This document shows, piece after piece, positions 12,229 to 14,553 of a DNA stretch of 16,861 bases (positions are counted from its first letter, which is position 1; each line of letters begins with the position of its first letter). The stretch covers positions 1-16,861 of the forward strand of contig WJMJ01000030.1 in assembly GCA_014728035.1 (NCBI GenBank), read 5' to 3'. A program made the position numbers and the translations under genes. This stretch comes from Promethearchaeota archaeon. Its GTDB lineage: Archaea > Asgardarchaeota > Thorarchaeia > Thorarchaeales > Thorarchaeaceae. The notes beneath the pieces were generated by a model. The model did not search any database and was not told the origin of the DNA. It was given only the letters and a program-made list of their open reading frames with translations.

Positions 12229-12327
12229 TCAAGTCCTCTCTGATGTCCTTTCTATGATATCTATGTTGACAGATTTGATTATTCTTCAACTTGAAAGAGT
12301 CGGAAGAAGATATTGGGTGCATCCCTT

Positions 12328-12371
12328 TGCTACCCATGTATTGCTAAGCTTTACATACTTGGGTCATTGCA
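12328..12371 (-). promoter_or_regulatory. Candidate SECIS element (eukaryote-like, non-canonical AUGA/UA core)
   Basis: Minus-strand RNA UGC-AAUGA-CCCAAGUAUGU-AAA-GCUUAGC-AAUACAUGGG-UA-GCA; kink-turn-like core, AAA 11 nt after AUGA, apical mini-stem. Confidence 0.55.
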
Positions 12372-13164
12372 TCTTCTTTCCGAACATATCCTTGGCTCTT
12401 TGAAAAAGTGAATCCATCTCTTGAGGATTCTTTGAAGCGACAAGAACAAGATCTACAGATTTGGAATCAGTAGGATTAAGATTTCCCCAATTCCATTGCA
12501 AACCTGTTGCAATATCCTGTGGACCTAATTTTGTTCTTCCTTGTAGGTCGCGATTTGCTTCTAGTTTGAAACTCGTCGGTCTATCCAAGTCCCATTTTGA
12601 GGGAGTGGGGTTGCTCGTCATTGCTACGTATAATGAGCTTTGGTCGTAGACTTTGATTATTCCTGTATCTTTGTCATAAGAACCTAAGTCATCTTTGTAA
12701 CTGATTGGGCCACCGATATCAAAGTCCATGATATTGTATAACTTGAAATCCTTAATCTTCTCATCACTGATATTGCGGGTAGTGTGACGAATTAACATGA
12801 AGGGTTCATTATAGCTCCACACATCTATTTCAAATTGAAGAATTGGTGATTCCTTGAATAGAGGTGTATTTTGAAGAATAAACCTATGAATCTCTTCTTC
12901 ATACTCGTTACTTGTAATAGCTAATCGTTCGCTATCCGTTGATCCACAGACTTGAATTTCTCCATTCATAATGTATGTCACCCAGAAGCCACCTTTGTAA
13001 CTGGCAGGATTTCTGAGCAGCAGACAGTTTTCATTGGACTTGTCAATCAGACTGAGACGTTTGAAGTAGAAACCTATCCGACCTTTTCCTCATGAAACAC
13101 ATTCGACAGTGTATTCTGCATCGAGCCTGGGGTATTGGTTTCCTGTTTCTAAGAACTCAGACAT
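12364..13164 (-). CDS. Putative selenoprotein (266 aa, CxxU at residues 22-25), beta-rich uncharacterised domain
   Basis: ATG13164 with AGTGA SD-like 6 nt upstream gives MSEFLETGNQYPRLDAEYTVECVS-TGA-GKGRIGFYFKRLSLIDKSNENCLLLRNPASYKGGFW, in frame with the annotated 12364..12981 ORF; only one internal stop. Confidence 0.75.
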
Positions 13165-13302
13165 AATAATCACTATTTGCTTGCTGGGAGCATATCTTCT
13201 TTAATTGATATAAGATTAGGGATACTGACTGTTCATTTCTACATGCTTCGTAAAGTTGATAAAGTGCTTGAAGAATTTCCGAGTGATGGGTGTTCTATTC
13301 TT

Positions 13303-14553
13303 ATGACGCAACTTGATATTGATTCCTTAGATAAATGGTATAGAAAACAACTAAAGAAAAAATCAAAGGATTTTCGGAAAAATGCAGAAAAGACCTACAA
13401 ATCTGTTGGACGTACTCTAAAAGATGTTGAAGATTTGTCAAAAGATTTACTTAAAGATGCTACAGAGGACGAGAGTGAAGAAACAGCTACTCGTTTTGCC
13501 AGAAAGATTCGTGAATTAGTTGATGATTTCGATGTGAAGCAGGAAATAACATATGAAAGCACAGAAAATATGCAGTCTGAAATTCAGCAATTCATCAATG
13601 ATCTTTGGGGCGCTGGAGCAAGATGGATTAAGAGAATGGACAAGAAACACAAGAGCACCATCAAAGTTCTAGATAATCTTATGAAAGACCTTTCTCGTGA
13701 TATGAAGATTATCGGAAAACTACTCTATGAATATAGTTGGGTTAAGGATCTAGAAAGAATAGCATCAAGAATCGGCACTTTGCGTGATATGACCTATAGT
13801 CGAGAAATTTTCGAAGAACGAATCAGACAAGTTAGGTTAAAGATTGACCAGGCTAGAAAAGAGTATTTCGACACCAAGGCAAAATATACTGATTTTGTCG
13901 AGAAATCCAATGTCGGCGATTTGTTGAATTTAGATGATGAAGCGGACCGTATTGCAACTCTATTAAGAATGAAGCTTAACACCTTAAAAAAACCCGTTAA
14001 GAAATTTCTTCAGCATGATCATGGAGTTAGAATTAGTCCTGCTGGCTCTAAAGCGCTAATTGACTATTTTGAGGATCCATATGAGGCTATAGTTGAAGAA
14101 CCTGATGGGCAGCCAGGATTGATTGAAGGCCTAGAAGCCCTCAGAAAGGCTGTTGAAACTGATGCCTTTCCATTGAAGGATCGACTTGGTAGACGTGCTA
14201 TTGAAGAAGCTGAATCCATCAAGGACGGAGAGCTCTTCGAGCTTCAGGAACAGGCAAAAGAGATTGAAAGGAAAAGAACTGAATTTGCTGATTCTGACGT
14301 ATATGCAAAAGATGCCAAAATGAAAGCGGAGGTAGAAGAAGCAAGGAAAAATTTGGAATATCATCAAAATGACTTGTTACGGATAAAAGATGATATTGAA
14401 CGTGAACTGGAAAAGATGGAGGAATATAAATCGCGTATTGAAAAGGAGCTTCTAAAACTGTTCAGTGCAAAAGTCACTATTGAATATGGTGAAACTCTTG
14501 AACCTCTTTTAGAAGAATGTAGTGTCGAACCTGTATCAGGTGAGGCGGTTTGA
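13303..14553 (+). CDS. Long coiled-coil protein, unknown function
   Basis: K/E-rich heptad pattern throughout, no Walker motifs; probable start ATG13303 (MTQLDID); TTGA overlap with dtdA. Confidence 0.75.
   Translation: MTQLDIDSLDKWYRKQLKKKSKDFRKNAEKTYKSVGRTLKDVEDLSKDLLKDATEDESEETATRFARKIRELVDDFDVKQEITYESTENMQSEIQQFINDLWGAGARWIKRMDKKHKSTIKVLDNLMKDLSRDMKIIGKLLYEYSWVKDLERIASRIGTLRDMTYSREIFEERIRQVRLKIDQARKEYFDTKAKYTDFVEKSNVGDLLNLDDEADRIATLLRMKLNTLKKPVKKFLQHDHGVRISPAGSKALIDYFEDPYEAIVEEPDGQPGLIEGLEALRKAVETDAFPLKDRLGRRAIEEAESIKDGELFELQEQAKEIERKRTEFADSDVYAKDAKMKAEVEEARKNLEYHQNDLLRIKDDIERELEKMEEYKSRIEKELLKLFSAKVTIEYGETLEPLLEECSVEPVSGEAV

Follow-up and report, generated by a model that had tools for sequence, protein, structure and literature searches.

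Through analysis of a 16,861-nucleotide stretch of archaeal DNA, which as a whole is referred to here as the window, a gene interrupted by a single in-frame TGA has been identified on the minus strand. The full coding sequence (12367-13164) comprises 266 codons. It begins with an ATG at 13164-13162 and its frame stays open down to a TGA stop at 12366-12364, except for the TGA at 13092-13090, which is codon 25 and lies in the context E-C-V-S-U-G-K-G. From the comparisons given below, this TGA is very probably a real selenocysteine (Sec) codon of a 266-residue all-beta protein. The Cys of the resulting CxxU motif is Cys22, encoded at 13099-13101. In the mechanically produced list of open reading frames the gene starts at GTG 12981, which is codon 62 of the longer frame. 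The initial annotation had proposed 61 further codons upstream of this GTG, reaching ATG 13164 with one TGA that reads C-V-S-U-G, and both the coordinates and the motif are reproduced by translation of the frame. The Shine-Dalgarno-like sequence which it had noted before the ATG is also present, as AGTGAT at 13169-13174 (minus strand), presumably complementary to the 3' end of 16S rRNA; relatives keep GTGATCGGTC immediately 5' of the ATG, GTGATC being retained there. Further upstream, about 45 nt 5' of the ATG, TTATATCA (13206-13213, minus strand) represents a putative promoter TATA box, and TATATCA or TTTTAAC is found at an equal distance in the relatives.

A six-frame search of 400 Asgard genomes detected the protein in 212 of them and, for the window's own family, in 68 of 85 genomes. 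Nearly all full-length matches of this family contain exactly one TGA, which lies in the same column in about 60 genomes and is invariant in 34 of 34 non-redundant loci. In these 34 loci the diversity at the three codon positions amounts to 0.27/0.14/0.59 in the part preceding the TGA and to 0.25/0.15/0.50 in the part following it, while the 60 nt of non-coding DNA upstream of the ATG show a nucleotide diversity of 0.59. As the codon-position diversity of the two sides matches, unlike that of the upstream DNA, the stretches before and after the TGA have evolved together as a single coding frame; together with the invariance of the codon, this indicates that the in-frame TGA is not a product of chance. 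The window belongs to a draft assembly (173 contigs, 8.5% estimated contamination), in which a sequencing error or the mark of a pseudogene could be suspected. Such an origin of the TGA is effectively refuted, since the same TGA stands at the same column in about 60 genomes that were assembled independently of one another, and the sequence on either side of it is under purifying selection.

The database homologs are unnamed or "hypothetical" proteins of Thorarchaeota/Promethearchaeota with 201-238 amino acids, and the starts assigned to them correspond to residues 30, 34 or 66 of the read-through product, that is, just past the TGA. In the DNA of three of them (72, 45 and 44% identity), the missing part was found upstream in frame as M-S-E-x-L-E-T-G-N-x-x-P-R-L-D-x-x-Y-x-V-E-C-x-x-[TGA]-G. 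The position of the called starts, at Met or Leu in columns 30 or 34, and the protein of one Loki-type genus, which appears to begin about there, would agree with two separate products: a conserved 24-codon upstream reading frame that is closed by the TGA, and a main protein whose translation begins at a non-canonical start such as the ATA at codon 30. This arrangement is very unlikely. Both parts always share one frame, they are fused through Cys in one locus of the same family (L041) and in the distant family f21, and residues 11-20, ahead of the TGA, are modelled as a confident strand (mean pLDDT 88). Moreover, a covarying SECIS is located at the 3' end of the gene, and neither the window nor its nearest relative has a canonical start before codon 62; in the window, no ATG, GTG or TTG occurs from the TGA to codon 62, though residues 30-61 are among the best conserved. 

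Homologs with a TGA or a Cys at position 25, conserved on both sides, had been anticipated in the initial annotation, and both kinds are seen. In L041 the Sec column is occupied by Cys (I-E-C-S-S-C-G), and a SECIS-like element is still recognisable at the 3' end of this gene, which suggests that the Cys form is a recent conversion. The site is also kept in distant homologs from four other Asgard families, at 20-26% identity to the window product in alignment A4. It reads C-I-T-U, C-(T/S)-(V/I)-U or C-S-K-U, each with an in-frame TGA, or, in family f21, C-I-(E/N)-C, a CxxC. The residues C22, U25, G31, G59, N131, D147, D149, G152, L207 and P215 are invariant in alignment A4, which leaves out the Arg forms and the variants lacking Cys at -3. 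Eight sampled loci from eight further Loki-type genera have kept Sec with Ile, Leu or Phe at -3, and one Thor-type relative (L048) has Ile there. The CxxU motif highlighted in the initial annotation thus stands for the window, with Cys22 and Sec25, but it is not invariant, the Cys at -3 being absent from L048 and from most sampled Loki-type relatives; by these alignments, the conserved feature is Sec and not CxxU. The lone-Sec Loki-type homologs (L064-L071, genera g62-g72) have in common a Cys located 2-4 residues from the C-terminus; the resolving role may fall to this Cys instead.

A further Loki-type genus, g70, has Arg at the Sec column in three sampled loci (L062, L063 and L072); there the frame closes a few codons upstream, the proteins appear to start just at this column and the N-terminal extension is missing, so the Sec loop has been lost in this lineage. 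Sec is therefore dispensable in some lineages, although one genome with the Arg form (G188) still has a tRNA-Sec. No clean correlation was found between Cys or Arg forms and the absence of tRNA-Sec in genomes G143, G188, G344 and G308. The tRNA is present in G143, which has the CxxC form, and in G188, and has no match above the cut-off in G344 (Cys form, genome 89% complete) and G308 (Sec form), where an unusual tRNA-Sec gene may have escaped the Rfam model.

The Sec machinery, whose presence in the genome had been named in the initial annotation as a point to be checked, was found in full. The genes of EFSec, SepSecS, tRNA-Sec and PSTK (L056, L057, L059, L001) form one tight cluster at 70659-74949 of contig C151 of the same genome (G000), and a Sec-containing SelD is encoded as well, its gene having one in-frame TGA in H-G-U-S-C-K. 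The tRNA-Sec scores 55.9 bits and is assigned by ARAGORN to SeC with the anticodon TCA; PSTK, at 129.5 bits, stays under the curated cut-off of 290.5 but adjoins the tRNA-Sec. Across the genome TGA ends 272 of 1025 long frames (27%), and in the window 6 of 15 open reading frames, including the gene described here. With TGA being a common stop, the genetic code has not been reassigned. Although the inserted residue cannot be revealed by sequence alone, reading of the TGA without selenium, through near-cognate suppression or a reassigned code, is extremely improbable in view of this stop usage, the full Sec machinery and the SECIS carried by the gene.

The SECIS (12304-12378, minus strand), delineated from alignment A2, covariation and the MFE fold, lies about 720 nt downstream of the Sec codon and consists of a lower stem, a k-turn-like core, an upper helix, an apical loop and a side hairpin. 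Its components in the window are as follows: (i) a lower stem (helix 1, with 64.5% of cells paired, also present in the MFE fold), in which the last sense codons (12371-12378) pair with the 3' arm AUCUUCUU at 12304-12311; (ii) the 5' core AUGA at 12364-12367, whose UGA (12364-12366) is the stop codon of the gene; (iii) an upper helix formed by 12355-12363 with 12333-12341, closed by the 13-nt apical loop GUAAAGCUUAGCA, the whole spanning 12333-12363; (iv) the 3' core UAG at 12330-12332; and (v) a side hairpin GGG-AUGCA-CCC at 12315-12325, between the 3' core and the lower stem. The same order is common to the 3' ends of 36 aligned relatives: the lower stem of the last sense codons, (A/G)UGA with the stop, a 9-bp upper helix, a 13-nt loop GUAAAGC...GCA, GAG, the side hairpin, and the return strand of the lower stem. 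Two deviations occur, namely that helix 1 is absent in one subclade and that in L048 the C-terminal frame differs, its stop lying outside the (A/G)UGA, which holds the stop in all the other relatives. The subclade, of Thor type (L019, L021, L024, L025, L027, L028 and L030), lacks the lower stem (AAGAAGAU/AUCUUCUU) and has a longer side hairpin instead, with the upper helix and core kept. In L042 and L043 (G308 and G309, of a distant family), the frame runs through the 5' arm of the SECIS and is stopped by a UAA in the apical loop (UUAAAG) instead of the UGA of the AUGA.

Covariation in the 36 relatives is most complete in the upper helix, where compensatory double changes affect 9 of 9 pairs and 87.6% of cells are paired; in the side hairpin (helix 4) 3 of 5 pairs have changed on both sides. 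The whole structure has a covariation score of 0.395 against 0.196 for shuffles, none of 500 reaching 0.395, and slid-partner controls stay at or below 0.156. RNAalifold independently recovers 8 of the 9 upper-helix pairs. In alignment A2 the AAA of the apical loop and the UGA of the 5' core are invariant, as are A58 and G59 of the 3' core. Position G57 is nearly invariant, the window being the sole exception: GAG is found in 35 of the 36 relatives, and the change in the window is G to U at 12332.

In the Asgard eSECIS-like model of Huang 2024 (PMC11227280) the core is AUGA_GA, the 3' core is [G/A]A, and the upper stem has 7-15 bp with at most two mismatches; for Thorarchaeia the loops are given as G[U/G]AAA (same source). 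The element of the window has the 5' core (A/G)UGA of this model, as AUGA, and agrees with it in the stem, 9 bp with one A.A mismatch, and in the A-rich loop start, GUAAAG. At the 3' core it departs from the model, having UA (12331-12332), whereas the elements of the relatives have [G/A]A. In a passage of PMC11227280 citing PMC4989117, the stop codons of Lokiarchaeia selenoproteins are said often to overlap AUGA. The published genes with Asgard eSECIS-like elements (SelD, VhuU/FrhA, VhuD/FrhD, HdrA and Prx-like; Mariotti 2016, PMC4989117; Huang 2024, PMC11227280) share with this gene the in-frame UGA, the Sec/Cys pairs and a 3' AUGA...GA SECIS, and their elements likewise have a 9-bp upper stem, a GUAAA loop start and a stop within AUGA, with the same Sec machinery. 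The differences relate to the 3' core UA in place of [G/A]A, and to the protein, which is unrelated to the listed families, has no Pfam match and adopts another fold. The element also has an additional covarying side hairpin, and its MFE fold is accordingly a three-way junction, unlike the published Asgard eSECIS-like elements.

A covariance model built from 33 SECIS cores of the family (R1) matched its own genome at 12328-12370 with 45.1 bits and nowhere else; having missed the selD SECIS, it is no general detector of Thor-type elements. At the 3' end of selD (L052, G000:C44, about 2518-2590), a GUGA holding the stop, an 8-bp helix, an AAA loop, GAG, a side hairpin with an AGCA-type loop and a lower stem can be recognised by eye, and the layout appears to be the same as that of the gene described here. 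The selD element, whose loop and one bulge differ, was not scored by R1, and its MFE fold differs; since R1 matched no second element in the genome, the likeness is one of inspection only. Rfam, which includes no Asgard-type model, gave only chance-level matches between 11900 and 13400, and none to a SECIS family. A scan of the genome with a naive SECIS pattern was dropped: it overlooked selD, and its 66 matches compared with 28 in the reversed or complemented controls.

The U at 12332 raises the question whether the copy in the window, within a genuine family, is impaired or decaying, the substitution weakening the sheared A.G pair so that UGA-25 would mostly terminate, or whether the base is an assembly error. 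Only the window has U at this nearly invariant position among the 36 aligned relatives, the published Asgard model permits only G or A, and a genome of the same genus (L012) has G at the matching position; the rest of the gene and of the SECIS is nevertheless intact, the open reading frame being 75% identical to that of the nearest relative and having no other lesion, and the MFE fold of the element showing the shared layout with -26 kcal/mol and a z-score of -4.17. In some natural k-turns, Kt-23 among them, the equivalent 2n position is occupied by U. Impairment or error is on balance regarded as unlikely. The conserved TGA, the Sec/Cys pairs, the covarying SECIS and the machinery speak for the 266-residue selenoprotein of the initial annotation, and with high confidence this appears to be a genuine selenoprotein gene family, a smaller reservation applying to the variant SECIS of this copy. 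Selenium is accordingly predicted, rather than observed, at residue 25, and the variant SECIS of the window is presumed to be active.

The structure of the read-through product was modelled with AlphaFold2 from a 32-row alignment (pLDDT 89.3, pTM 0.89) as a single domain with 17 strands and one C-terminal helix. The Sec motif lies in a loop (residues 22-29, pLDDT about 63) flanked by the strands 13-21 and 30-40. The best VIA-align match, with Z 22.9 and an rmsd of 2.5 A over 225 of 266 residues, is the N-domain of GH15 glucodextranase/glucoamylase. Values of Z 20-23 over 225-245 residues were obtained for 1ulv, 1lf6, 9ju0, 8rf9 and 6ggy, Z 19-22 for the supersandwich domains of GH94, GH116 and cyclic glucan synthase, and Z 14-16 for aldose-1-epimerase-like proteins. 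Foldseek gives a probability of 1.00 to supersandwich domains, and the structural neighbours in the ESM Atlas, queried with the post-TGA translation, agree with this fold. The model can thus be assigned with confidence to a stand-alone galactose-mutarotase-like beta-supersandwich. The fold, which takes in the whole chain, is the one found in the N-domains of GH15 glucoamylase/glucodextranase (1ulv, 1lf6) and of GH94/GH65 phosphorylases, and in galactose mutarotase-like proteins. In contrast to GH15 (Glucodextran_N, PF09137) and GH94 (GH94_b-supersand, PF06165), there is no Pfam match and no (alpha/alpha)6 catalytic domain. To our knowledge, no supersandwich domain of these families carries Sec.

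At the sequence level the protein stands apart. No Pfam family was found for the read-through product at E<=1, and a sequence-profile search of the PDB gave nothing below E 0.06. A profile search of 1.84 billion representatives returned 187 proteins, the strong ones being truncated calls of this family. The weak matches cover only the C-terminal half and correspond to Pfam-unannotated regions near the N-terminus of large multidomain proteins, of which P0075, P0080, P0087 and P0097 also have transglutaminase or CarboxypepD_reg domains. Leaving aside the more distant profile matches, which are of unknown origin, relatives were found only in Asgard archaea. On inspection the N-terminus is hydrophilic, which suggests a cytoplasmic protein.

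The initial annotation had expected a beta-sandwich and no thioredoxin, hydrogenase, Hdr, Fdh or SelD domain, and the all-beta supersandwich of the model bears this out. The Cys three residues before Sec is shared with the CxxU redox selenoproteins of thioredoxin fold (SelW/Rdx-like and Prx/Trx/Grx-like; table in PMC13188914), and suggests a selenenylsulfide redox couple. The present protein differs from them in being all-beta, in having the motif in a loop between strands and not at the N-terminus of a helix, and in that most sampled Loki-type relatives have no Cys at -3 but a C-terminal Cys instead. The 17-strand model, with its motif in loop 22-29, is not that of a CxxU oxidoreductase of thioredoxin fold.

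In the mechanism proposed here, the decoding of UGA-25 would be directed from the 3' end of the mRNA by the eukaryote-like Asgard SECIS, read by the tRNA-Sec, PSTK, SepSecS, SelD and EFSec encoded elsewhere in the genome. The terminal UGA would presumably escape recoding because the ribosome must unwind the SECIS to reach it. With low confidence, Sec25 may be seen as a reactive centre on a mobile, glycine-rich loop, which might form a selenenylsulfide with Cys22 in the Thor-type proteins and possibly with the C-terminal Cys in the Loki-type ones. A conserved acidic patch, D-F-D-x-G-G...S-Y-K-D-D (D147, D149, S155, Y156, D158 and D159), could hold the ligand on which Sec25 acts or to which it relays sulfur, selenium or metal; judging from the modelled fold, a carbohydrate-type ligand is plausible there. 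A redox or relay role of the protein is accordingly offered with low confidence, as is the alternative that Sec serves as a carrier of selenium, sulfur or metal. The Gly-rich Sec/Cys loop of SelD, which is thought to carry selenium, has the same flexible placement at the N-terminus next to a Cys. The analogy is speculative, however, the present protein having no AIR-synthase-like fold, ATP-binding motifs or sequence similarity to SelD. It can be suggested, quite tentatively, that the family represents a selenoenzyme confined to Asgard archaea and new in its type of catalysis, in which a lone Sec sits on the N-terminal loop of a carbohydrate-binding-type supersandwich, its resolving Cys lying either three residues from it or in the C-terminal tail. 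Such an enzyme would carry out a redox reaction, or a transfer of selenium, sulfur or metal, so far undescribed for any selenoprotein, and the family would be ancestral to several Asgard classes.

Sec decoding systems of this kind are known; what is new among selenoproteins is the protein family together with its fold. We are aware of no report of the supersandwich fold for any selenoprotein. Five Loki selenoprotein families were described by Mariotti 2016 (PMC4989117), three selenoproteins (HdrA, Prx and MvhD) were reported from Sifarchaeia and Jordarchaeia by Sun 2021, and seven families resulted from the survey of more than 400 Asgard genomes by Huang 2024 (PMC11227280), which covered homologs of known families only. 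In a review of May 2026 (PMC13188914) the archaeal selenoprotein families number 11, and nearly all of them belong to hydrogenotrophic energy metabolism or Sec synthesis. The family is absent from these three surveys and from the prokaryotic family table of the review, so its initial description as unusual or undescribed has held against the Asgard selenoproteome lists compared. Nor was homology found to the published archaeal families (SelD, FrhA/VhuU, FrhD/VhuD, HdrA, FdhA, HesB-like, Prx-like, AhpF-N, DsbA-like and others), with no Pfam family at E<=0.01 and all homologs either nameless or "hypothetical protein". A full-text literature search combining selenoprotein, archaea and galactose mutarotase gave nothing relevant.

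The gene would add an archaeal selenoprotein family found in roughly half of the 400 sampled Asgard genomes, one truncated by every annotation pipeline seen among the homologs; surveys by homology to known families would then undercount Asgard selenoproteomes. The large covarying set of Asgard SECIS elements, with its natural core variants, bears on the archaea-to-eukaryote SECIS question, and the family offers a defined target for biochemistry in the form of a recombinant U25C protein.

Synteny around the gene is kept only within the Thor-type family, and no neighbour recurs beside the distant homologs; conserved to this extent only, the neighbours give no clue to function. A divergently oriented gene of 458 amino acids (13177-14553, plus strand), with a sub-threshold match to a BAR domain (E 4.9e-4, 20.3 bits against a cut-off of 28.5), is the neighbour of the selenoprotein gene in every Thor-type locus inspected, at 55-88% identity. 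The two ends of the contig (1-129 and 16733-16861) share 129 bases identical but for one mismatch; this terminal repeat could be explained by circularity, by repeats bounding the piece or by an overlap left from assembly. As large chromosomal contigs of the relatives are syntenic with it, a chromosomal origin of the contig is favoured.
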